A stretch of 63,235 nt of DNA, counting the filler, from Stramenopiles sp. TOSAG23-3 (taxonomy: Eukaryota), in the NCBI GenBank assembly GCA_900128585.1. It is 8 parts of 8 records of this genome, joined end to end, with 100 filler letters (N's around TTAATTAATTAA, not from the genome) between each part and the next. Parts side by side here need not be neighbours in the genome. Positions count along the whole stretch, not along the records: positions 1 to 9,923 come from LT642868.1; 7 more parts are not named here. One strand, written 5' to 3'. Under the pieces are notes generated by a model. The model was not told the origin of the DNA. It saw nothing but the letters and a program-made list of their open reading frames with translations, and did no database searches. Position numbers and translations under genes: made by a program. The stretch's first letter is position 1. Every line of letters starts with the position of its first letter. This document shows positions 2,691 to 57,624 of this stretch, piece after piece.

Positions 2691-3273
2691 GATATATATA
2701 TAGTATATTAAAAAAAAATAATGGCTGTTATTTATTATTAAAATTACTTAAATAACAGCCAATTTTCTAGTTTTATTTATTAGTAGGTGTTTAAAATGTG
2801 TGAAAAATAAAATGTGATAGCGTATGGCTGGTGTAGACAATGGTGTGAGTATTATTATTCCGCGGTCACGTCTTCTCTAAACTTTTTTGTTTCAGCACAC
2901 AAAAAAAAAGATCCTTCCTTCTTCTATCTTTCCTCCTCCTTTCTTCTTATACTACTATTACTGGTAATATTATTACAGGTACGGTACAGGGTACCGGTAC
3001 CGGTACAACCTGGTATTATTAAATAGTCATTATTTTGGCAGCAAAAGAAGAAGCAGCAAAAACATTTAAAAAAAAAAGGGAATAAATCACATCGACAGGC
3101 ACCACGACGAAGAAGACGTGAGTGACGGAAGGCATGAATATAATTATTTGAAAAGAATTTCAGAAGTTCAGTTTGGAGTTGCGACACTGTGAACAGTAGC
3201 TTTTAATGTTAAGCGGTGGTCTTTTCCATTTCCCCTTTCCTTTTAAAGCTGTACCAGTGGCATTTGTCTGAAA

Positions 3274-4401
3274 ATGAGAAAGAGTATCTTCAGCTTTGCA
3301 GTGACCGTCTTGGTGTGCACGCTTGCTGTAGCAGACGCAAAGACGGTCTTGTATTTATTCGGTAGTGCATGACCCACATGCCAGGCGTTTGGGCGAGGTG
3401 ACTTTCAAAATTTGTACCAAAAGTATAACTCGAGCAATGACTTCGTTGTAAACCCTGCCGTGCCCGGTGGCACTTCAACACCTATTTGCACGGACGAGAC
3501 GTCATGTGATTGGGAAAAAATTACCCTTTGTGCCTTCCAGGCGGGCAGGAACGTTTTGGACGTGAAATTAAAGTACCTGGATTGCATGGACAGTTCAAAA
3601 CTCCCGCTGTTCTACGAACCTGCAATACCTGAAGCTTGTGCAAAAGACCAAGGCTTGCCGTGGGACCAAATTAGCAAATGTTTCGGTGGTCCGATGGGCG
3701 ACGCTCTGCTTAAGGAAGCCGGAAATGTAACAACTTCAGCAATGGGGCACGGGTCGTTTACGCTGCCCACCGTGTTGGTTGATGGCAAAGTTGCCTGCAC
3801 GGGCGCAAGGTGCGACTTTCAGGATGTTGCAAAGATGCTTGATGCAAAACCATCACAGTCTTACCTGCGCAAAAAGGATCAAGAGCCCCTCAGCAATGTG
3901 ACCATCTCGTACTTTTTTGCTAGTAAATGACCCTTATGCCGAAATTTTGGGAGTCAAGATTGGCCCCGAATATTTTCGGCATTTCAAAACGGTGTTACCA
4001 TAAACATTGTCCCCGGCATAAGAGTTCCCGAAGGAAAGTGCGTCGACTCTCAAAACTGTAACTACGAACGTGTGACGTTGTGCGCTTTTGATGGCCAGTC
4101 CGTCGCAATGAAAACGAAATTCTTGGATTGCATGGATGCTCCTTGGTACGACCCGTTGACCTGGGGAAAATCCCACAAGTGCGCTGATCAGTTAAGCCTC
4201 TCGTGGCCCAAGATATCTGACTGCTACAATGGAACTCGTGGCGATGTATTGGAAAAAGAAGCGAGTAAGCTTTTCGTCAAGGCGTTTCCAAAACCTGTAT
4301 ATTTTCCTCAAATAACAGTGGATGGGAAAGTAGTCGATGCAGACTACGATAGTGTCGTGAAAGCGGCATGCAACGATGGCGCATCATCAAGTGCCTGCTA
4401 A
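3274..4401 (+). CDS. Secreted or lysosomal tandem GILT-like (thioredoxin-fold) thiol reductase; predicted selenoprotein with two Sec residues (UGA at 3370-3372 and 3928-3930), 375 aa
   Basis: ATG at 3274 opens a signal peptide (MRKSIFSFAVTVLVCTLAVADA). The frame runs to TAA at 4399-4401, interrupted only by two TGAs, in GSA-U-PTC and ASK-U-PLC. Two homologous halves share the GILT-type pattern (TLCAF, LDCMD, CA..gL.W..IS.C..G..GD.L.KEA, P....DGK). A SECIS element lies downstream. Confidence 0.9.
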
Positions 4402-4451
4402 AGATTTTTTTCAACCGGCACAACAACAGTTTTCGAGCAAAGTAAACTTAG

Positions 4452-4506
4452 CTTTTGAATGACGATGGTTAGCAAAAATACATTAGTGCTAGCCTCTGAT
4501 GAAAAG
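4452..4506 (+). promoter_or_regulatory. Eukaryotic SECIS element in the 3' UTR of the GILT-like selenoprotein
   Basis: Helix I is CTTTT/AAAAG. The core is ATGAC (4459-4463) with TGAT (4497-4500). Helix II is GA(T)GGTTAGC/GCTAGCCTC. The apical AAAAA lies at 4474-4478. Spacing ATGA-N11-AA-N22-GA fits the canonical pattern. Confidence 0.88.
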
Positions 4507-4875
4507 AGAGAGACCAACGCGTGCCATGGGCGTTTGCGTGGTAAATGGTAACACCGATGCAAACGGTTTCATGGTTTTGGTACCTCTTTTTATTAGTTAA
4601 AATTTACACCTTTACAAAAATGGATCTGCTTGAGAAATAAATACTCAAAAACCACATAAATTAAATCGTGCAACACACACTGATAACAGCGCGTAATCAT
4701 ACTCTTACCAACAAATATTTTTTATTAGTGTTCTTAAAAACATTTTATTTTAATATTATAGAATATTGTGATTATATATAATTTGTTTTTTTTTATATAA
4801 TATGCATACTTATAATTTGTTTTTTGTACTTGTGTTCATGCAGGTACGGGAGCGCTTTGCTTTAACTCGCTCTTT

Positions 4876-6082
4876 TTACTTCTCCTTCTTCACAGGGATG
4901 TAGGCAATCTGATTTTTAATCCCAAAGACATCGTACACTAAATGCAACTCGATTAAAGTGGCGAGCTCCGCTGCAGTATTGCCGCTGTTAAAAACAACAG
5001 CCTTGCCGCTGCCTACAATTTCACGCACATTAAAGTCATAGCTCTGCCCAGTCAGCTTGGCATATATAATTTCGTTTGCAAGGTCGCCACTTCCCTGGAC
5101 AAGCACCAGCGGCCAGCCGAACCGTGTCGCTTGCAAAGCCTCTGTCCAAGCGGTGTGACCGTTGTTCATCATCACGCACACAACGCGGCAGTTCCCTGCC
5201 AAACGGCGAATCATGGCCATTTTGTGCTTTATGAACTCTTCCTGCCTGTCGTTCCAGCCCTTGAAGTCGGATATGACGAGCTGGTGGGTGTGGTAATTGG
5301 ACAATGGATCTTCGATGTCGTTCGGGGTAATGCCCAAGGTGCACACCTTCTTGCAGTAATCGGCATATTCTTCGCATGGGGAAGTGGCAGCAATGCCAGA
5401 TGCCAGCCCAGAATCGACAACAAGGGCGTCGTGGCACGCCGCCGCTTTCATAATCCCACGCTTGTAGTTTTCAAATTGTACTTGTTGGTCATCGTCTTCC
5501 AACGAGGCCAGGTCTCCAATCAACACAATTATTGGGGTTGGGGGAATCGACGGCGGCAGCTTCAGTCTACGCAAACAGCTCTTTTTGTGGAGCTCTTTTG
5601 AAGGGGCGAAGAGGACTCGTTGCCGGATCCGCGATTTTCCGTGGGATGCTTGCTCTAAGGTACGAGCTCGGTGCGTTGCGACGTAATCGTGGGATGCCTC
5701 GGGCTCAGGGCCTAGCGCGTTCTTCCCCTCTTCCGCTTGTTTAGTCGCCGCTTCTTCTTCTTCACGCTTGGCTTCCTCGGCATCCTGCTCGGCTTGCAGC
5801 GCATCTAGTTCGGCCTGAGCAGCTTTAGCTTCAGCTTCCAATTTCTCTTCAGCCGCTCTCTCCTCCGCCTCTTCAGCCGCTCTTTTTTCTGCCTCCTCCT
5901 CTTCCGCCTGCCGAGCAGCCTCCTCCTCTTCTGCCTTGGCCTTCGCTTCCTCTTCCGCTTTCTGCCGCGCTGCCTCTTCCTCCTCCGCTTTGGCCTTTGC
6001 TTCTGCCTTCTGCTGTGCTGCTTCCTCTTCGGCTTTGCGCTTTGCCTCCTCTGCCTCTGCCTCTGCGTCATCCTCCTCCTCT

Positions 6083-12490: not shown

Positions 12491-13555
12491 GTACGCGATA
12501 GAGAGGGAGAACGGAAGCAGCTAAGGAAGGAATCAAGGAAGAAACCTACACCAATTTAAACCAACGATCCTGTTAAAATCATGCAATGGTTGATGAATTT
12601 TTTCATTCTTATAATTTCAATTTCATTACATATTTATATAATTTAGAAGTATTTCAATTATCTCCTCCCCTAACTTATTAATAACTCTGTATACACAAAT
12701 TGTTGAATTACTTTTTTTTTCTTCAACAAAAAAAAAAGAAAAAAGAAAAAAAGTTTAAATTTTGTTGTGTAAAACAAATAAGGAAAGTTAGTTAATAAAT
12801 GTAAACATATTAATGTGTAATAGGGAAGGTTTTCATCTTTTCTATTTCATTTTTTATTAAGTTAATAATGGCTCAATAATAAGTAATTATAAAATAAGGA
12901 TACTTATACTTAGACTACGAATTATTCATTCGATATTTTAAATTATCCATCGATTCAAATTAAGTATAAATTAATTATATTCTAATATATAAATATTACC
13001 TATTTAAAATGGTCCATGTCATTTCGCGCCTTTCTTTCTTTCTTCTTCTCTTCTTCTTCTTTTCTTTCTTTCTTTCTTTCTTTTTCTATTTCGTTCTTCT
13101 TCTTCTCTTCTTCTTCTTTCGTTTTCTTTCTTCTTCTTCTTCTTCTTCTTCTTGTATTTTAAATTAAAGAAAAAGATTTTTATTTCATTATTATAGATTA
13201 CAATTAAACTATACTTAATTAAATAGTACTCCTATTTAAATTTCATCAAAAAAATAAATAAAAAAAATAATAATAAAAAAAATATTATTATTATTATTAT
13301 TATTATTATTGGACTAAAGTAAATAATGAAGAAGAAGTTAAACTGAGAAGATTGAAGAATGTTTTGTGCATAGTGTAATTTATCGCTTTTGCCAGTATTT
13401 AGTTTGGTTGTATTCAATTTAAGCAAGTTTTGTAGTATTTGCCTTCGTGTGCGTTGCGCGTAACTGACAGAGAGAACGAGAGAGCCAACCCTCACCTCAC
13501 CTCGCCTTCCCACCGGCGCCTAGTAGCCTGTACTCCCCCACCTTCTCTTCCGGCC

Positions 13556-15703
13556 ATGTCCTCCCAAGACGACTTTCAGTCTCCCAAGCAACCAACGGCC
13601 CCGGCCCGAACGGTCCGCCCACCGATACTGGACGAATCCGACAGCTCCGACGACGACGTCCCGCTGTCCACCTTCAAACGGAACACGTCCCCGCAGAAGG
13701 CCGCCCCCGCCGCCTCCTCCAAGCCCCCCAAAAAGGTCAAGAAGGAGAAGAAGCACAAGAAGGACAAGAAGAGCAAGAAGAGCAAGAAGCGAAAGAAGGA
13801 CGTCAAGCGGGAACGCTCGGCCCCGCCCAAGAAGCGGGCGCGGGCGTCCTCCGCCAAGAAGGCCCCGGCCAAGAAGAAAGGGCCGAAGGAGAAGACCCTT
13901 ACGGACACGATGCAGCTCGACCGGGCCATGAAGGCCTACCGGTGGTGGGAGGCGACGCCGCTCCCGGACGGCCAGATGTGGCAGACCCTCGAGCACTACG
14001 GGGTCAACTTTCCCCCAAAGTACGTCCCGCACGGCGTCAAGATGGGGTACGACGGGGCTGCCATAGACCTCACCTCGGCCCAAGAGGAGGTCGCCACGTT
14101 CTACGCGGAGATGCCCTTGGACGGCCCGCAGCTGGGCAACCCGAAGACGAAGAAGGTCTTCGACAAGAACTTCTTCAAGGACTTCAAGGGCGTCCTCGGC
14201 CGGGGGCACGCCATCCAGAAGTTCGACCTCTGCGACTTTGGCCCCATCCGAAAGCACGTCGAGAAGCGCCGGAAAGTTCGAAAGGAGCGGACGAAGGAAG
14301 AGAAGGAGGTCGAGAAGAAGGAGCGGATGGCCGTGGCCCAGAAGTACGCGTACGCCATGGTCGACGACCACATCGAGAAGCTCGGGAACTACACGATCGA
14401 GCCCTCCGGCCTCTTCCGGGGCCGCGGGGCCCACCCGAAGACGGGGACCCTGAAGACCCGGGTCATGCCCGAGCAGGTCATCCTCAACGTCGGGGACGGG
14501 CAGATAGTCCCCCGCTGCCACGTCCCGGGCCACGCCTGGGGCTCCCTGATCGAGAAGAACGACGTGACGTGGCTCGCGTACTGGCACGAGAACGTCATGA
14601 ACGGGACCAAGTACGTCTGGCTGGCCGCCTCGTCGAGCTTCAAGGGGAAGAGCGACGTGTCCAAGTACGAGAAGGCCCGGAAGCTGAAGAAGTGCATCGG
14701 GAAGATCCGGGGGGACTACGAGAAGAACCTCAAGGCGAAGAATCAGGCCAAGGCCCAGCGGGCGACGGCCATGTGGATTATCGACCGCCTTGCCCTGCGC
14801 GCCGGGAACGAGAAGGGGGAGGACGAGGCCGACACCGTCGGGACCTGCTCCCTGCGGAAGGAGCACCTGGCCTTTGACGAGTCGGGCAAGGGGGGGAACA
14901 GCAAGCACGTCGTCGTGCTGGACTTTTTGGGAAAGGACTCGATGCGCCACTTTCAGACCATCGACCTCGGGAAGCGCTACGGGGACGTCGGGGTCCGCGT
15001 GTTCAACAACTTGCAGAAGTTCTGCAAGAAGAAGAAGGGGTCTGAGGACATCTTCGACCAGCTGAGCGTGTCGGACCTGAACGACCATTTGAAGACCCTC
15101 ATGCCCGGGCTCTCGGCCAAGGTCTTCCGTACCTTCAACGCCTCGGCCACCCTGGAGGCGGAACTGCCCGACAACGTGGCGGCGAAGTCCATCGCGGAGA
15201 AGGTCATCCTGTACAACGAGGCCAACCGGAAGGTCGCCATCCTGTGCAACCACCAGAAGACCGTGTCCAACGCGTTCGAGGCAGGCTACGAGAAATTAGA
15301 GGCTAGAGCGAAGCTGCTCCGGGAGCAGATCGAGGAGATCAAGTCGGACTTCAAGCGGGTCAAGAAGGGGAAGGACATCAAGCTGTCCACCGTCCAGCCC
15401 GGGGATTCAAAGGAGGAGAGGGCCAAACAGGCCCACCGCTTCAAGCGCCAACCCTCCCAGGACCAGGTCAAGAAGCGCTTCCTGACCTTCAAGCAGCGGC
15501 TCACGGCTCTCGAGCTGAACATGAAGAACAAGGACGACAACAAGTCGGTTGCGCTCGGGACCAGCAAGATCAACTACATGGACCCGAGGATCACCGTCGC
15601 CTGGTGCAAGCGCAACGAGTGCCCCATCGACAAGGTCTTTGCCCGCGCACTCCGGGACAAATTCCCATGGGCCTGCAGCGCCAAGACGGGGTACAAATTT
15701 TAG
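13556..15703 (+). CDS. TOP1: DNA topoisomerase I (type IB)
   Basis: W.TLEH.GV.FPP.Y, IEPSGLFRGRGAHPKTG, LRAGNEK..DEADTVGTCSLR, DFLGKDSMR, AKVFRTFNAS, VAILCNHQ and catalytic SKINYMDPRI. The first in-frame ATG is at 13556. Confidence 0.97.
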   Translation: MSSQDDFQSPKQPTAPARTVRPPILDESDSSDDDVPLSTFKRNTSPQKAAPAASSKPPKKVKKEKKHKKDKKSKKSKKRKKDVKRERSAPPKKRARASSAKKAPAKKKGPKEKTLTDTMQLDRAMKAYRWWEATPLPDGQMWQTLEHYGVNFPPKYVPHGVKMGYDGAAIDLTSAQEEVATFYAEMPLDGPQLGNPKTKKVFDKNFFKDFKGVLGRGHAIQKFDLCDFGPIRKHVEKRRKVRKERTKEEKEVEKKERMAVAQKYAYAMVDDHIEKLGNYTIEPSGLFRGRGAHPKTGTLKTRVMPEQVILNVGDGQIVPRCHVPGHAWGSLIEKNDVTWLAYWHENVMNGTKYVWLAASSSFKGKSDVSKYEKARKLKKCIGKIRGDYEKNLKAKNQAKAQRATAMWIIDRLALRAGNEKGEDEADTVGTCSLRKEHLAFDESGKGGNSKHVVVLDFLGKDSMRHFQTIDLGKRYGDVGVRVFNNLQKFCKKKKGSEDIFDQLSVSDLNDHLKTLMPGLSAKVFRTFNASATLEAELPDNVAAKSIAEKVILYNEANRKVAILCNHQKTVSNAFEAGYEKLEARAKLLREQIEEIKSDFKRVKKGKDIKLSTVQPGDSKEERAKQAHRFKRQPSQDQVKKRFLTFKQRLTALELNMKNKDDNKSVALGTSKINYMDPRITVAWCKRNECPIDKVFARALRDKFPWACSAKTGYKF

Positions 15704-27927: not shown

Positions 27928-29112
27928 TCACGGGTACAGAAAGAACAACCCAGGCCGTTTGCTACTTCCAAACAACGTTCCCCCGGGATTCTTGAACTGC
28001 GAGTTTACTTGCCGACACAAGGTTGTTTTTGCCGCACCATCTGCATAGAATCCAGGGTCTGGGAGCTTTGATTTTGCCCGCATGAGGTCATGCGCGTGGT
28101 ACTTCCTTTTAACGTCTCCAAATTTGACGCCAGAACATACCCGTTTGTTGTGGGATAAGACGGCCTCTTTGCCAGCTGTCCGGTACTTGGGCCCCGGGCC
28201 TTTTTTTACCACGATCCAGTCGCTTCGAGATCCCCCACTGTTACCAAACGATGCTGCCGATGCGGACCTTTTTATCGATTCTATTTGTTTCCCTAAAGCA
28301 ATTGTCGATTTGTACTGGGCGGGGCCAGGAACAAAACGTTTGCTTTTTTCAATTTGGTTGTACGGGTTCAATGTTCCGATCGAGAAACTCTTCTCGTACC
28401 TTGATTTCGGGAGGGGTGGGTAATAAAGGGCCGGCCCGGGCGAATCCCGTCCGACAAACGGTCTATTCAACGCTTCTCCCATCTTTTTATAATCGCTTTC
28501 TTTTTTGGCCCCGTCATAGGCAAGCACCTTTGCGGCAACGTCCCGAGATGTCTGCGAGATATGGACCCCGTTTTTCCGCAGGCTACTGAACGCAACGTCG
28601 TAGCTCCCTGGCCCTGGAACCGCACCGCTTCTTGAATCAGTTTTGAAGCGGCTTCTCCCGCCGCTGGTCGTATGCGGTCTACGTGGTGGTTTCCCGAACG
28701 AAATACCTTTTACTCTTCGTTTTGTCTGTTTGTTATCCACTTGGTAACTTCCAGGCGCGGGGTTTATCCTCTGTAGGACCCGTCTCTCTCTCTGGCCGGG
28801 GCACTGGTGATTTAACTTCTTGGACTTCCCACACTTAACTTTCCACGCTTCTGGTATTCCAATGGCACCTTTGCCTCTCTTTCTTCGAGCCTCTGAACGC
28901 ATATTGAGCATTTCTATCATAGAGTCAATGTCGTCCTCGTCTAATCCCTTTGAGACAAGGAACTCGACACGTTCAGAAATGGGGGTATTGCTGGCATTGG
29001 CGATGCGCCAATACAATATCGCCTGCTGCAGCGTTTCTTCCCTGTCTTCGCCAGGACTCTCGGGTGCATTGCTTGAAGCACCACTACTTTCCGGGACCAA
29101 GTCTTCTTCCAT
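27928..29112 (-). CDS. SHIPPO/ODF3-like PGP-repeat axonemal protein with an N-terminal Pex14N-like helical domain
   Basis: Repeats PAPGSY, PGPGSY, SPGPALY, PGPAQY, GPGPKY and PDPGFY. The N-terminus has NTPISERVEFLVSKGLDEDDID. Confidence 0.75.
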   Translation of the reverse strand: MEEDLVPESSGASSNAPESPGEDREETLQQAILYWRIANASNTPISERVEFLVSKGLDEDDIDSMIEMLNMRSEARRKRGKGAIGIPEAWKVKCGKSKKLNHQCPGQRERRVLQRINPAPGSYQVDNKQTKRRVKGISFGKPPRRPHTTSGGRSRFKTDSRSGAVPGPGSYDVAFSSLRKNGVHISQTSRDVAAKVLAYDGAKKESDYKKMGEALNRPFVGRDSPGPALYYPPLPKSRYEKSFSIGTLNPYNQIEKSKRFVPGPAQYKSTIALGKQIESIKRSASAASFGNSGGSRSDWIVVKKGPGPKYRTAGKEAVLSHNKRVCSGVKFGDVKRKYHAHDLMRAKSKLPDPGFYADGAAKTTLCRQVNSQFKNPGGTLFGSSKRPGLFFLYP

Positions 29113-45161: not shown

Positions 45162-45539
45162 TTACAAAGAGACGATCAAAGGTCCAGCATTGTCGCTCCC
45201 ATCGTTAACGTGTGCATTGTGGCTGCCATCACAGTACGGGAAGGACTTGCTTTTCCAGCAGCGACACAGTACGAGTTTTTCTTTGCCCCCAAGGGAAACT
45301 TTGTGAACAACTTTTTTCTTGTCAAGGTCTTGGTAATGGTTTGCCCTCTTTGCCGCACCGCCAAAACCAAGAAATGCATTCGCAGTGTATACAATGACAA
45401 GTAGCGTAACAAAAAATGGCAACAGCTGAAGCCACTCATTCTGAGTTAGCTTCATGAACCCTGCAAACGTTTTCGGCAAAGGCAAAGCTACGAGAGCCGC
45501 CGGCAACGTGCTCGTTACAAAAGTTGTTACAGCCTCCAT
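45162..45539 (-). CDS. CDGSH iron-sulfur (NEET family, CISD1/2-like) protein
   Basis: An N-terminal TM helix followed by LCRCWKSKSFPYCDGSHNAH and NAGPL. Confidence 0.93.
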   Translation of the reverse strand: MEAVTTFVTSTLPAALVALPLPKTFAGFMKLTQNEWLQLLPFFVTLLVIVYTANAFLGFGGAAKRANHYQDLDKKKVVHKVSLGGKEKLVLCRCWKSKSFPYCDGSHNAHVNDGSDNAGPLIVSL

Positions 45540-46439
45540 TCTTCACTCGTACGGGATTTCCTTTTTGTTCTTGTTGTTGATAACCAAAAATCAATTTTAT
45601 TCTAACTTGCCTTACATCTGTTTATTGTGAAGCCCACAACTCCCATTATTCGTAACAACAAGTATAGGTCACATGATTCACAAAAGATACAGAACTGTAT
45701 AAAAGTTCAAAAATTATTATCCTCGTTTATTTTACTCTTCTTCTTCTTCTTCTTCTTCTTCTTCTTTTTTTTTTTCTACTTGAGAGGTGGTCCGGTCCGT
45801 CCGTCCGTCCGTCCGTCATCGTCCATCCATGGAGTTTGCTTTTATGAATAGAGTTATGAATAGGGTTTAAATATATGAAGGAAGAAAGAAAAGGTAGAAA
45901 AAAACAGAAAAAATGATTGAATAACAGGTAAATAGTATAGGTTGATATATTGGGAATTGTGAAATCGCTTCTTAGAACAAACCAACTCTCAATACTTCCA
46001 TATTTGATAGTTTATTTCTATACTATTTCTATATTATAAATGTTTAAAAAATAATTACTGTAGGAGTACATTTAATAATGTTTTAGTATATGCTATTTAC
46101 CTGTAGTACATTTTTTAATTTATTACCCCTGCCCTTCTTCTTCTTTTTTTTTTTTGAGAGAGAAGAAGAAGATGATATATATTATGACGATGCTGTGTGA
46201 TAATAATAATAGTGAAGTAGTCGTCTTCTTCTTCTTCTTTCAACCGGCCATCCACCCATGTACGCTTTCTACGTTTGCCTTCGTGCGTGGATAAAAGAAA
46301 AGGTTTCGTAAAAGCAAATGTATGAAATATATTCTTCACAAATACAAAAGGTATGAAACGAAAAACTGATTTAAATCCGAATCAGACGCACACCAACACC
46401 AGCAAACGACCCAAACAACAACTCAAAACACTGAACGAT

Positions 46440-52363: not shown

Positions 52364-53204
52364 GAATAAGATAATGAGAGAGGTTATTTTATTATAAATA
52401 ATCAGTCGTCTCGTCGTCTATATTTGTTTATGGGGAAAAGATAACCATCATTAACTACACTAATTGTCAATATAAACTATACAATTGTGATAAATATGAC
52501 TTCAACTGAATTTATTCTTTTAGAGATCATCTTGTTTTTAAACCCTAATAATTAACACTAGTCAACGTCACAAAAATAAATAAAACGACTATAATAATAG
52601 ATCTCTACGAAATCATTAATTTAATATTTTAGAAAAATAGAAATAGAAATACAGTTTAATTTAAAATTAAATATAACGATTTGATCTATATTTAGCGTCT
52701 TTTTATTATATTGGTAATTTAATCATCAGTCGGTCTGTTGTCTGCTGTCTATGAGGAATGAGGAGTAATAATAGTCGATTCCAATAATAATATGAAGAGG
52801 CTGATGATAAATATTATGTCGTACCTATTAGAATACGATAAAATCCCCCTATCTATTTAATATTATTTTTTTATTCCGTACCTGGTACGGGTACCGAATC
52901 CGTTCGGTCTATTTTTTATACCTGGTACGGTATGTATGTACCTCTTCTTCCCCCATTTGTTTCTCTATTTTTTACATTCTTTATACTTTTATAAAGTTTG
53001 ATGCAAACTGTAAAATATTTAAATGAGTTCCTTGAAGAAATGGAGTGTGGGAGAGTTTTGTATCTATGAAATTTTTTGTCTTTTGTGGAGGGTTTGTTGG
53101 ATTGCTCTTCCTTCTGTTTCCTTCTTTGTTCTCTTTTGTGGCGCGGCAAGTGCGAAAGAGGTGCACGCCGGGGCAGTAACGGTCGCAAGCAACAATACGC
53201 TGTG

Positions 53205-56200
53205 ATGGACGGTCACCACCATCATCACCACGATCACAGGCAACATGAACACCACAAGTTGAAATTTTCAGTAATACAGTGCACGGGGGAAGAGCAGTCT
53301 CGCCCGGCCACGGAACTGCAAAAATACAGCGACCATACGAAAGGGTGGATTTCTCCAAGGTTTTCGGACTACCCGCAAGAAATTGTCGCACAGTTTCACC
53401 ATCATATCAGCATTTCCCAGCTGCAAGTTCTGTCGCACGAGTCCAAGATTGCGAATAAAATAGAGATATTTGTGTCCGACCAACGAAACCAGGACCCCGA
53501 CACCTTAGAGTGGACCCGGTTGGGATTTTTTACCTTGGGCGATAACGAAGAAACGAAGTGGCAGGCGAGGGAACTGAAGACCGTCGATCTGAACGCCCAA
53601 GCCCGGTACCTAAAACTAAAATTGGCCGGGTGCCATATCAACCGAGAAAACCTGTTCAACCAGGTCGGTATCGTAGCCTTGTCAATATTTGGGAAAAAAA
53701 TATCTGGTGGGGGGGGGCAAACATAAAATAGAGAAGCAGAAGAATGACCCAGAGAAAGCGAAGGAAGCCGAGGTCATGCTGCCCCCGGAGCTGGACGAAA
53801 AATCCAAAAAGATGATCATGGACATTGTGACATTGAAGAAAACGGCAGTGAACAAGGAGGACTTCGCGGGCGCGAAAGGGCTGAGGGACGCGGAACTTGC
53901 TCTGAGGCGAGATGCCGTTCGTTTGGTTCAGATGAGGCACGAGAAGTACGCGTGCGTGGAGGCAGAAAATTACGAGCGGGCCCACCATTGCAAGGAAGAG
54001 ATCGAGAAAATATTAGAGGGCATGCTCGCCGTTGCGAGGTCAAAGCGCGAGTACCGTCTGCTAGAGAAAATACGGATCACAAAGCGTGCGGCGAAAGCAG
54101 CGAAGCTGGGCGCTTCCATGTCGAACGGGCGGTGGGATTTCTTCTCTGCAAAAGCAAACGTCGAAGCAGCGGAGGGGCAGACGAACTCAGAGACAAAATC
54201 GGACGACCAGGGCAAGGAACAGGAGCAAGCGCCTCGACCCAAGAAGAAGGCGTCGTCGTTGGAGCAAATGCTTCGAATGGGGATTTTAATGAAGCCCGGC
54301 AACCCAGAGCAAACCGCTACCCCCGCATCACTAGACAGGTTAGAGCTGTACCAGTACAGGGTAGAGTTTCCCGCAGGCCCCTTAGGACTGGGCCTTGCTC
54401 CGCCCCCAAATAGAGACAAAGGGAACGTTGTCACCGTGGTAACACCCGGGAGCTACGCGAGCAATTCGAAAAAAATTAAAGTCGGGGATACCCTCGTGGG
54501 CGTTGGCACGGAGAGTGCAATTAACAGGACCCACGAAGAGACGGTGGAGCTCATCAAGGGCGCAGAGAGGCCCGTACTGTTCAGTTTTGCGCGCCTGATT
54601 GTGCACGAGAGTGTCAAGCGAGAGAAGATCGTGATGACCGCCGAACAGGAGTTAAAACTGAAAGCAATGTGGGACAAGATGGACACAGACGGTTCCGGCC
54701 ATCTTTCTAAGGAAGAGCTGATCCAGGGGGTGTCCACCGCGGGCATCAAACTGAGCGAAAAGCAGGCCGCCAAGGTGGTAAAAATGGTAGACAAAGACAA
54801 TTCTGGGCACATAACATACGACGAGTTTCGGGTGTACATCCTTTCAAGAGGAAGGAAAAGGAAGCAGAAGCGCCCTATGTCAAGACCGGAACCGTTGCCG
54901 GAGTTGGACGCAAACGTAGAGAAAACGAGCAAAGAAATGGTGCAAGGGCCGAAAAGCGACGACCCGGAAAGAAAAACACCAAAGACCCCGTCCAGAAAGG
55001 ACAGAAAAGCCAGGCCAGGATCTCGACCACTTCCCACGAAGAAAGAAGGCCGGCCAAAGTCGAGGGCCCTTCCTACGTTGCAGAAGCAGAACAGCATACA
55101 CAGCGACGATTCCGGGTTCAGCAACCCACCAGGAGACGACCAAAGACTGCCATCACCAGAGCCCTTGCCTTCCACGGTCGTCGATGCATGCGAGCCGTTG
55201 ATCGCGCTATTTGGCAATCGAGCTGTGCGGTGCTTTTACAGCAAGACCTGGCAGTTGAGACACTCTGCAGTCGCTAAAATGAGAAAAGATTTGAAAGAGC
55301 TCGTGAAATCCAAATCTGGGGACAGCTTAATGCAATTCGTATTTTTGCCGTGTACCCAAGCCTTGAAAGACGGTGCGGCAGAGAAAGTTGCAAAAGTTTT
55401 CCGACAAGAATTGAAGTTTGCAATCGAGTTGCTAAATGCGGTGGATGAAACGTTGCCCCCTGGCAATTCAATATCGTACCCGAGATCATTGCGCCCTCAT
55501 CTCGACGATTTCATCGCAAAATTATCGGAAAGGATGGGGGACAACAACAAAAAAATATCGGCCGAAGCAATTGAAGCAATGTGCAGCATCTCGGGAACGC
55601 GCGGGTATGGCCCGACTGTAATAAACATTGCGCTGAGGCTTCCCTCAAACGCAAAGGCTTCAGCGTTTCGGCCAATATTGGGGAAGCTGGACTTCTTTGT
55701 AAAGATTTTGGGAATGTATTCTTTTCGGTTTCAGGAACTGCAGGAAGGTCACATTTTAAGCGCCATGAAATCCATGGATTCCGCTCACCATCAAAACAAA
55801 CAAGTGCGGAGCAAAACGCTTGATGTGATCGAAAAGATAGCGGAGATACAAGGGCGGTCCCAGCAAATAGACGACTACCTGAACAGTCTAAAAGATGCGC
55901 AGCGGGACGAGTTCCACAGTCGTTTGGAGTCACACGGGTTTGGCGCTACCAACGTGTACAATGGGGAGAGCCGAAAGCCCAAAAATTTACGAAATCAAAG
56001 AGTGGCGATAGCGAGGCCAAAGAAAGAAGCAAACGACCCCGATGCCCAGTTGAAGATGTGGTGGAAAAGTATAGACAGTGACGGGTCAGGGCATATCTCT
56101 ACCGATGAGCTGAAGGTGGGGTTGGGAAAAGTTGGCTATAAACTTTCCGATGCACAAGTGCAAAAAATCGTTCAAAAATTTGATCACGATAGCTCTGGCC

Positions 56201-57624
56201 ACATGAGTTTCAGCGAATTCAAAGCGCTGATCGATTTCATGCGGAAGGAAAGGCAAAAGCAGCAGAAACGTTCGAACGAACTGGCGGGAAAGCGCCCAAC
56301 TAGTCAACCAGTAAAGCTATCCAAACCATTTGCCATCTCCTTCCCGCCAGGGTCCTTGGGCATTGCACTGCAGTCGACGGATCACCTTGCACTGGAAGTT
56401 AGCAAAGTCGCTGCAGCAAGTGTTGCGAAAAAAGGAGGTGTAGTCGTTGGGGACCATTTACTGTCCGTCAACGACAAAGACTGCACGAAAATTTCCGTTA
56501 CTGCAGCACTGAAACTGGTAAAAAATTCACCGCGCCCGATAGTAATAAAGTTTGCGCACGTCATGACAGGCACCGACGCTCCACCGCCGACCAAAAGAAA
56601 AGAAGTTCGGCTGTCCGAACCGTTCACCGTCTCCTTCCCGCCTGGGTCCTTGGGCATTGGGCTGCAGTCGACGGATCACCTTGCACTGGAAGTTAGCAAA
56701 GTCGCTGCAGCAAGTGTTGCGAAAAAAGGCGGTGTAGTCGTTGGGGACCATTTACTGTCCGTCAACGACAAAGACTGCACGAACATTTCCGTTACTGCAG
56801 CACTGAAACTGGTAAAAAATTCACCGCGCCCGATAGTAATAAAGTTTGCGCACGTCGTGACAGGTACCGACGCTCCACCGCCGCAACAACCAGAACCGAA
56901 GCCGGCCGAAACGAAAGAGAAGCCCAAGGCGGCACCGCAAGGAAAAACCAAGGCTGCTCCAAAGGAGGCGACCGCAAAGAAGAAGGGTAGCAACCGATTT
57001 ATGGTTGAGTTCCCTGACGGCTCGCTCGGGTTCAACCTAAGAAAGAGCAGTGACCAATCCGTTAAGCAGCTCGAGGTCAGCAAAATTGTTCCTGGCAGTG
57101 CTGCAAGCGAACATAGACTTGCTGTAGGCGACAGGTTAGTGCGCATTAATGACAAGGACAGCACCGACGACATGGCCCCTCGTCACATTTTAATGCTCCT
57201 GAAAAAAACGCCGCGGCCAATAAAGTTGTGGTTTGAGCGTTCAGAACAGCCCGGGAAAAAGGATGCAGAGACTCGACCAAGCGAAGCAACAAGCGGTGAA
57301 AAACGCGCCAGAGCGAAGAAAGATACAGCCAAAAACAAGGGCGAGGATGGAGTAAGTCCGATGTTTGAAGTCACCATAGGCAAAGGTAATCTTGGACTAA
57401 AACTAGGAAAAAACAAGAATCCGAAAGACTCTGGTGTGTTGGTCATAACCGAAATCTCACCCTCTGGCTTAATCGCACAGAACAACCCAGGCATTGCCGT
57501 TGGGTTCATCCTCGCATTTGTCAACATCGTTGATTGCAGAAAACTCCCACCCACCCAAATCATGAAAACATTAAAGTCGGCAAAAAGACCAATGACCTTG
57601 AAATTTATGAAACCATCATTATAG
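53205..57624 (+). CDS. CEP104-like ciliary protein: N-terminal jelly-roll, coil, PDZ, 2 EF-hands, TOG, 2 EF-hands, 4 PDZ; frameshift at the G9 run 53709-53717
   Basis: CEP104-type N-domain: GWISPRFSDYPQEI...QVLSHESKIANKIEIF...RLGFFTLGDNEETKWQARELKTV...NLFNQVGIVAL. TOG start: FGNRAVRCFYSKTWQLR. G8 fuses ORF 53076-53726 with ORF 53689-57624. Confidence 0.8.
56317..56884 (+). repeat. Near-identical 294-bp intragenic tandem duplication (two PDZ domains)
   Basis: Units start at 56317 and 56611 and share long stretches of identical nucleotides. Confidence 0.9.

Follow-up and report, generated by a model that had tools for sequence, protein, structure and literature searches.

A tandem GILT-family gene with two predicted selenocysteine codons in Stramenopiles sp. 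TOSAG23-3

A stretch of 63,235 nt from Stramenopiles sp. TOSAG23-3, referred to here in its full length as the window, carries near its beginning a gene predicted to encode a thiol reductase of the GILT family with two catalytic domains and a selenocysteine (Sec) in each. The coding sequence occupies positions 3274-4401 on the plus strand, as do all features of the gene described below, and consists of 375 codons followed by TAA; the frame is interrupted internally only by TGA, at codons 33 and 219. An in-frame TAA lies upstream at 3244-3246, and the first ATG after it in this frame is ATG 3274. In the table-11 list of open reading frames (ORFs) the locus appears as 3412-3930 plus a shorter piece, 4072-4401, from the end of the same frame. 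An earlier note, made from the sequence alone, had joined these pieces into one frame running from ATG 3274 to TAA 4401 and broken only by the two TGAs. Our translation agrees, and orthologous frames are present in four metagenome loci (L001-L004, described below).

The protein begins with a probable signal peptide, residues 1-22 (3274-3339), which was recognised from hydrophobicity and by reading the sequence: MRK is followed by a hydrophobic core and ADA. No other 15 residues of the protein are as hydrophobic as the N-terminal MRKSIFSFAVTVLVCTLAVADA (Kyte-Doolittle 2.56), which ends in A-x-A; the maximal window begins at residue 5. L002 and L003 have similar hydrophobic N-terminal leaders. 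Half-versus-half, profile and hhalign alignments place GILT-like domain 1 at residues 23-189 (3340-3840). GILT-like domain 2 follows at residues 208-375 (3895-4398), with its best Pfam stretch at 211-305 and a conserved C-x2-G-x5-C tail. The linker between the domains, residues 190-207 (3841-3894), differs in length between the four lineages compared and shows no conservation among them. The protein contains four N-x-S/T sequons.

The two halves of the protein are homologous, with 35% identity over 156 aligned positions (E 2e-27), and both TGAs fall in the same column of the half-versus-half alignment (SAUPTC and SKUPLC). The first TGA (3370-3372) opens the motif U-P-T-C (3370-3381), and the second (3928-3930) opens U-P-L-C (3928-3939). 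The alignments also place a C-x5-C motif in each domain: CTDETSC in domain 1 (codons 72-78, 3487-3507) and CVDSQNC in domain 2 (codons 256-262, 4039-4059). The earlier note had proposed that the TGAs are equivalent positions of two homologous domains, and that a divergent C-x5-C replaces the GILT signature CQHGxxEC; the half-versus-half alignment supports the former, and for the latter both motifs are present and align with the signature of mouse and canonical GILTs given a one-residue deletion.

A scan of metagenome contigs for relatives produced 209 pattern matches, from which five loci (L001-L005) were confirmed. L001 is the same organism (99%), and L002, L003 and L004 encode proteins that are 47%, 49% and 44% identical to the window protein, with GC contents of 0.30, 0.54 and 0.64, respectively. 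The frames of the latter three are colinear with that of the window and have TGA at both sites (SAUPTC/SRUPLC, SAUPTC/SKUPAC and SAUPGC/SVUPEC), with strong conservation and invariant columns on both sides of each TGA; in L001, too, both codons are TGA. L005 (2363-4027), from the same metagenome assembly as L001, is an intron-bearing orthologue with TGA in the exon that holds the domain-2 active site (nt 3138) and, near nt 1802, what may be its domain-1 site (VGAUPWC). Domain-profile scans of viral and genome contig collections found no relatives.

In a collection of 5.8 billion proteins, two matches among 2845 candidates are full-length clusters. The database entries P0002 and P0003 have W printed at both sites, which implies that the gene caller had read the TGA through. 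An exhaustive HMMER search yielded 183 representatives with E<=0.001; among the 150 listed, 36 have an alignment that covers a Sec site. The residue at that site is Cys in 32 of these (24 CxxC, 6 CxxS and 2 other), W in two, and uninformative in two. Preservation of the TGAs between proteins only 44-49% identical, together with Cys in most homologues, supports the proposal that Sec is the first residue of each CxxC-type motif.

Elsewhere in the window TGA is a normal stop and no general sense codon. It is the terminal stop of 9 of the 26 other long ORFs, and not one internal TGA occurs in their 12,488 codons. Other TGA-interrupted frames exist in the window; no Pfam family attributable to a selenoprotein was found in them. 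Within the window, which is as far as these searches extended, there is no tRNA (ARAGORN, all 63,235 nt), and no Pfam family of the Sec machinery (SPS2, PSTK, SEPSECS, eEFSec or SBP2) occurs in any of the 27 ORFs.

RNA libraries indicate that the gene is transcribed as a single unit. Twenty of the 24 listed runs contain the stretch, and 17 are recorded as RNA, from 10 studies; contigs were aligned from four runs of four studies (X1, X3, X5 and X7). Single contigs span 3198-4643 in X1, 3216-4703 in X5 and 3225-4740 in X7, and two overlapping contigs cover 3201-4313 and 4297-4690 in X3. Both TGAs and the hairpin downstream of the gene are bridged colinearly in all four runs, with no joints and no indels. 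The TGAs themselves are unaltered in the RNA contigs, which differ from the genome only by T>C at 4305, in all four runs. Beyond 4740 the X7 contig continues into a run of A that has no counterpart in the genome, which indicates a poly(A) tail and argues for mRNA rather than DNA. The likely mRNA is unspliced and about 1.5 kb long (3198-4740), with an approximate 5' end and a poly(A) site near 4736-4740. The earlier note had named an unspliced transcript across both TGAs as a check, and colinear contigs in four of four RNA libraries provide it. A short upstream ORF of 21 codons plus TGA, in another frame, extends from 3206 to 3271 and ends 2 nt upstream of the main ATG; it is contained in only the two longest RNA contigs (starts at 3198 and 3201, the others starting at 3216 and 3225). 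The flanking bins 2777-3161 and 4856-5000 have near-zero depth in all four RNA runs, an observation that was not used as evidence.

The 3' untranslated region (UTR), 340 nt long, contains a single element resembling a type-1 Sec insertion sequence (SECIS), at 4452-4506, which is supported by its minimum free energy (MFE) fold, a strict descriptor and a consensus core. In helix I, 4452-4456 pair with 4502-4506. The core sets AUGA (4459-4462), whose DNA counterpart ATGA begins 57 nt past the stop codon, opposite UGAU (4497-4500), and this core (UGAC/UGAU) agrees with the UGAN/KGAW consensus quoted in the searchable text of the SECISearch3 paper (PMC3753652). Helix II joins 4464-4473 to 4488-4496 in 9-10 bp with U4466 bulged, and the A-rich apical loop (4474-4487, 12-14 nt) has AAAAA at its start, 11 nt past the core. 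The MFE structure of 4450-4508 is exactly this SECIS-like shape (-13.2 kcal/mol, z -2.2), with 6 of 200 shuffles as stable. From its position and fold, the element would serve as the SECIS of the gene.

Such hairpins were sought with two home-made descriptors, one strict and one relaxed. The strict descriptor finds two sites on both strands of the window (126,470 nt), compared with a mean of 1.3 in 40 first-order Markov resamplings of the window that keep its dinucleotide statistics. At this rate, one would expect a correctly oriented match within a 340-nt 3' UTR in about 0.3% of cases. The second site, 45913-45955 (+), falls between genes in AT-rich DNA, and no TGA-interrupted ORF precedes it. 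It was rejected as a SECIS and is most likely a chance match, in keeping with the rate of about 1.3 per window.

Assignment of the protein to the GILT family, which the earlier note had made for both domains, is supported by several kinds of profile comparison. The whole protein scores 32.6 bits against Pfam GILT (PF03227), above the cut-off of 22.4, with E 1e-7 in two stretches, and six of the eight domain copies from the four lineages match this family at E<=0.01 (best, 5.2e-9). A profile built from the eight tandem-clade domains only has mouse GILT (6NWX) as its top PDB match, with E 2.2e-7; positions 3-154 of this profile align to 13-165 of the 6NWX chain, with U opposite the first Cys of CGAC. 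A broader domain profile matches 6NWX with E 6.1e-39, and hhalign of the tandem-clade profile against 11 canonical GILTs gives a probability of 99.65% (E 3.6e-25, 161 columns). In these comparisons U-P-T-C and U-P-L-C align to the CGAC of mouse GILT and to the CPxC of homologues, and Sec would replace the first Cys. The CQHGxxEC signature occurs in 9 of 16 scanned sequences, namely eight canonical outgroups of the tree described below and a tandem protein outside the tree, P0160; C-x5-C occurs in both window domains and in the single-domain proteins P0067 and P0078. Because C-x5-C takes the place of CQHGxxEC, we class the protein, by its sequence, within the GILT superfamily but in a divergent subfamily.

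Several observations weigh against the view that this is an expressed two-Sec GILT gene with its own SECIS. RNA libraries may carry DNA, and contigs give neither an expression level nor exact transcript ends. The SECIS models of Rfam release 15 have no match in the whole window at gathering level; cmscan with E<=10 found no SECIS in 3000-5200 or in 4420-4530 (111 nt), and none in L002-L005 at the same threshold, its output consisting only of chance-level matches to snoRNA, miRNA and lncRNA models. Of the canonical SECIS that the earlier note placed about 50 nt past the stop, the shape, the core and the A-rich loop are there, at 57 nt, but a match to Rfam is not. A longer fold, 4430-4520, is no stabler than its shuffles (z -0.59, 45 of 200), and the relaxed descriptor also matches 18 of 400 composition-matched Markov resamplings of the window UTR. 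Among the relatives this descriptor supports only L002, where a similar hairpin, AUGA-N12-A-rich, lies 131 nt past the stop and speaks for the SECIS reading; 68 of 400 L002 resamplings are matched too. For L003 and L004, whose available downstream sequence is 185 and 232 nt long, neither descriptor nor the UGAN/KGAW filter returns a site. The SECIS call rests on structure and consensus in one organism, not on covariation across lineages. Candidates picked by eye in L003 and L004 had non-consensus cores or long bulges and were counted neither way; these contigs end early. As for the protein, domain 1 of the window taken alone scores 18.4 bits on Pfam GILT, under the 22.4 cut-off, the window protein as a single query matches no PDB sequence, and the CQHGxxEC signature is absent, the C-x5-C in its place having no Q-H-G and a one-residue deletion. 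With these points set against the evidence from frame, relatives and transcripts, we still consider it highly probable that the locus is one genuine gene for a two-Sec selenoprotein of the GILT family, with Sec predicted at both UGAs.

Phylogenetic analysis points to one duplication behind the tandem arrangement of this clade. Domain-1 copies form one clade (100/100) and domain-2 copies another (94/92), and the two are joined at 91/72. Both lie within a subfamily (100/100) that also contains the single-domain WPGC forms P0067 and P0078 and Cys forms with GANCPxC, and that is well apart from canonical GILTs. Given this topology, the simplest history would be a single duplication of a domain that already bore Sec, before the lineages split.

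P0160, a protein of 437 residues from the protein collection, is a second kind of tandem GILT. It shares with the window protein two GILT domains in one chain and a leader peptide, and differs in having Cys-type CxxC motifs (CGGC and CPDC), the canonical CQHGxxEC in both halves, and no Sec. These motifs suggest that P0160 belongs to the canonical branch and had a separate origin. GILT domains may therefore have been duplicated in tandem more than once, a suggestion that rests on the canonical motifs of a protein outside the tree.

The databases contain numerous traces of genes of this kind that were misread. The earlier note had warned that standard gene callers would break the gene up, and these entries bear it out. 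Cluster members other than the two full-length ones are fragments of 62-172 residues, the W read-throughs of P0002 and P0003 have been described above, and P0302, a EukProt gene model of 307 residues for a tandem relative with a published genome, recovered by profile search (36% identity), lacks exactly the two Sec-site stretches. P0302 is probably another two-Sec GILT, mis-annotated as if its Sec stretches were introns. The fragments, the Trp read-throughs and P0302 together imply that selenoprotein counts for marine protists, and GILT annotations, are underestimated.

Comparison with known systems indicates which features of the window protein are new. In mammals GILT is under interferon control and is routed by mannose-6-phosphate. 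The window protein shares with mouse GILT/IFI30 (6NWX) a domain alignable end to end, the position of the active-site motif, an N-terminal leader, a CM[DE] block, a cis-Pro-type (V/L)P and, in domain 2, the C-terminal Cys pair, whereas it has U-P-x-C instead of C-G-A-C, C-x5-C instead of CQHGxxEC, and tandem domains.

GILT proteins containing Sec are not themselves new. According to the searchable text of the 2008 report, Sec-GILT was introduced as a new family of eukaryotic selenoproteins on the basis of three Global Ocean Sampling reads, one of them with a SECIS (PMC2398784). The searchable parts of later papers include GILT among the selenoproteins of Aureococcus (PMC5917014) and count it with the algal selenoprotein families of narrowest distribution (PMC7539508), in line with the statement of the earlier note that Sec-containing homologues had been reported in algae. 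As far as these texts describe them, the published proteins and that of the window have in common a GILT-family thiol reductase, UGA-encoded Sec, Cys homologues, a 3'-UTR SECIS and a marine protist source, the Sec and the SECIS of the window gene being predicted ones. The published sequences, in contrast, are three of read length, while the window protein has two domains and two predicted Sec. No mention of a tandem or two-Sec GILT was found in the searchable text of the literature, figures and supplements being outside that search, and an earlier record of the tandem form may exist. The Sec-GILT family is thus already known, and the tandem two-Sec form appears to be new.

Selenoproteins with more than one Sec include SELENOP, SELENOW of the UxxU type, SELENOJ with two Sec and PDI_e with three, as given in the searchable text of PMC7539508. 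In these, as predicted for the window gene, more than one UGA per mRNA is decoded through 3'-UTR SECIS signals. The window protein differs in that its Secs would be separated by 186 residues, each copy of the duplicated catalytic domain holding one, and would lie neither within one motif nor in a Sec-rich tail. SelL is a further multi-Sec selenoprotein.

We propose the following model for the gene. An intron-free gene would give a polyadenylated mRNA of about 1.5 kb, translated into a 375-residue protein of the secretory pathway that comprises a signal peptide and two GILT-type thioredoxin-like domains with a variable linker between them. The UGA of each U-P-x-C motif would be read as Sec by means of the single type-1 SECIS at 4452-4506. 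By analogy with GILT, each Sec would act as the attacking nucleophile and form a selenenylsulfide with a substrate disulfide, which the neighbouring Cys (C36 or C222) would resolve; small thiols would then re-reduce the enzyme. The enzyme would most likely act outside the cell or in an acidic compartment of digestive or lysosome-like character. The pKa of a selenol is low, and this would keep the nucleophile active in an acidic compartment.

GILT is a lysosomal disulfide reductase, and the known members of its family are secretory and lysosomal reductases. The available text of a preprint places PF03227 among the functions linked to phagotrophy in chrysophytes. These two points together favour a reductase of digestive vacuoles or a secreted one, and we regard a lysosome-like reductase as the better-supported role, with some reserve; compartment, reductase direction and substrates are those suggested by the analogy. 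A more ambitious version is that the two-Sec tandem GILT clade, marked by C-x5-C and widely expressed, is the main disulfide breaker in the acidic food vacuoles of marine grazers (uncultured bacterivorous stramenopiles and several other protist lineages), that the Sec-bearing domain was duplicated and Sec serves as an adaptation to low pH, and that one SECIS suffices for efficient decoding of both UGAs. This version we put forward only tentatively, and doubt it more than we believe it.

The evidence for a reductase must be weighed against a different chemistry. The protein might contain Sec and nevertheless be an oxidase or isomerase resembling DsbA or PDI, or a handler of peroxide or metal, located in the endoplasmic reticulum, on the cell surface or in the surrounding medium. 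In favour of this, the profiles have matches to DsbA, BdbD and tryparedoxin in the region of the active site, the signature motif of GILT has changed, the leader peptide is the sole localisation signal, and the subfamily is well separated from canonical GILTs. The DsbA-type matches, however, span just 30-45 residues or so around CxxC, whereas GILT is the best match and the only one over the full domain (6NWX, E 2.2e-7; hhalign, 99.65%). The reductases known from the GILT family are, moreover, secretory or lysosomal. With the tie to phagotrophy seen in the available preprint text added to this, we judge an oxidase or isomerase unlikely, though it is the strongest competitor to the reductase. 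Somewhat less probable still is partial decoding, in which translation would mostly stop at UGA33 or UGA219 to give a truncated or single-domain product, with the two-Sec form in the minority. Sec insertion generally competes with termination, and both UGAs, at distances of 1087 and 529 nt upstream of the SECIS, would depend on that single element. On the other side, domain 2 with its UGA is under clear purifying selection in four to five lineages, from which it follows that domain 2 must be translated, and both UGAs precede C (TGA CCC), a weak context for termination.

The remaining alternatives deny Sec altogether. If the UGAs were decoded as another residue, by near-cognate read-through (Trp, Cys or Arg) or lineage-specific reassignment, the W stored at both sites of P0002 and P0003 and the missing Rfam match would find a ready explanation. 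TGA nevertheless ends nine of the 26 other ORFs of the window and never interrupts their 12,488 codons; the UGAs occupy the catalytic Cys position, Cys in 32 of 36 homologues, where Trp would destroy the CxxC site; and a SECIS-shaped hairpin with a consensus core stands in the 3' UTR. A Sec-GILT with a SECIS has also been published (PMC2398784, searchable text). We consider non-Sec decoding very improbable. Least probable of all is a pseudogene, or a set of two or three short independent genes (3412-3930, 4072-4401), as the broken-up standard ORF list and the many 62-172-residue database fragments might suggest. This is already contradicted by conservation that continues across both TGAs and into the sequence before them, the leader and a YLFGSA stretch included, by single RNA-library contigs that bridge the whole locus, and by the presence of the same two TGAs in lineages that are 44-49% identical.

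The window as a whole is gene-dense nuclear DNA of a eukaryote, with genes for topoisomerase I (Topo I), PP2A-B56, Nnf1, CEP104 and an ammonium transporter. Among named organisms, the nearest relatives of the Topo I (13439-15703, +) come from oomycetes (55-58%), from a labyrinthulomycete (56%) and from diatoms (about 50%), and environmental proteins are up to 63-77% identical to it. The host appears to be an uncultured marine stramenopile of heterotrophic type with an intron-poor, gene-dense genome. A CEP104 N-terminal domain (E 6e-43) is encoded in 53001-53726 (+), and CEP104-like TOG, EF-hand and PDZ domains in 53689-57624 (+); the two ORFs overlap, their frames differ, and they probably belong to a single gene interrupted by a small intron or a frameshift. 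A SHIPPO repeat protein is encoded at 27928-29112, and together with CEP104 it suggests that the host is flagellated. A small gene at 45162-45539 (-) encodes a mitoNEET/CDGSH iron-sulfur protein (MitoNEET_N, E 5.9e-15; zf-CDGSH, E 9.5e-11). Upstream of the two-Sec gene, a perfect 12-nt inverted repeat, GGCTGTTATTTA...TAAATAACAGCC, lies at 2720-2765, about 30 nt past the stop of the preceding ORF, and at 2742-2775 all four RNA runs have many contigs of 31-37 nt with very high depth; the repeat may represent a short motif that is shared widely, or a hairpin at a 3' end. A scan of the window for bacterial promoters and terminators, which is unsuited to a eukaryote, gave counts at the level of shuffled sequence.

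The locus extends a family known since 2008 and is no discovery of principle. It provides a case, supported by RNA, of a duplicated catalytic domain with predicted Sec in both copies and apparently one 3'-UTR signal for both, and it offers a natural test of whether a reductase that works at acid pH is well served by a selenol nucleophile. The gene is present in RNA libraries of 10 studies and could serve as a marker for the role of selenium in the digestion of ocean grazers. If two-Sec GILT enzymes are indeed the main disulfide breakers of their food vacuoles, the digestion of prey by these grazers would depend on the supply of selenium.

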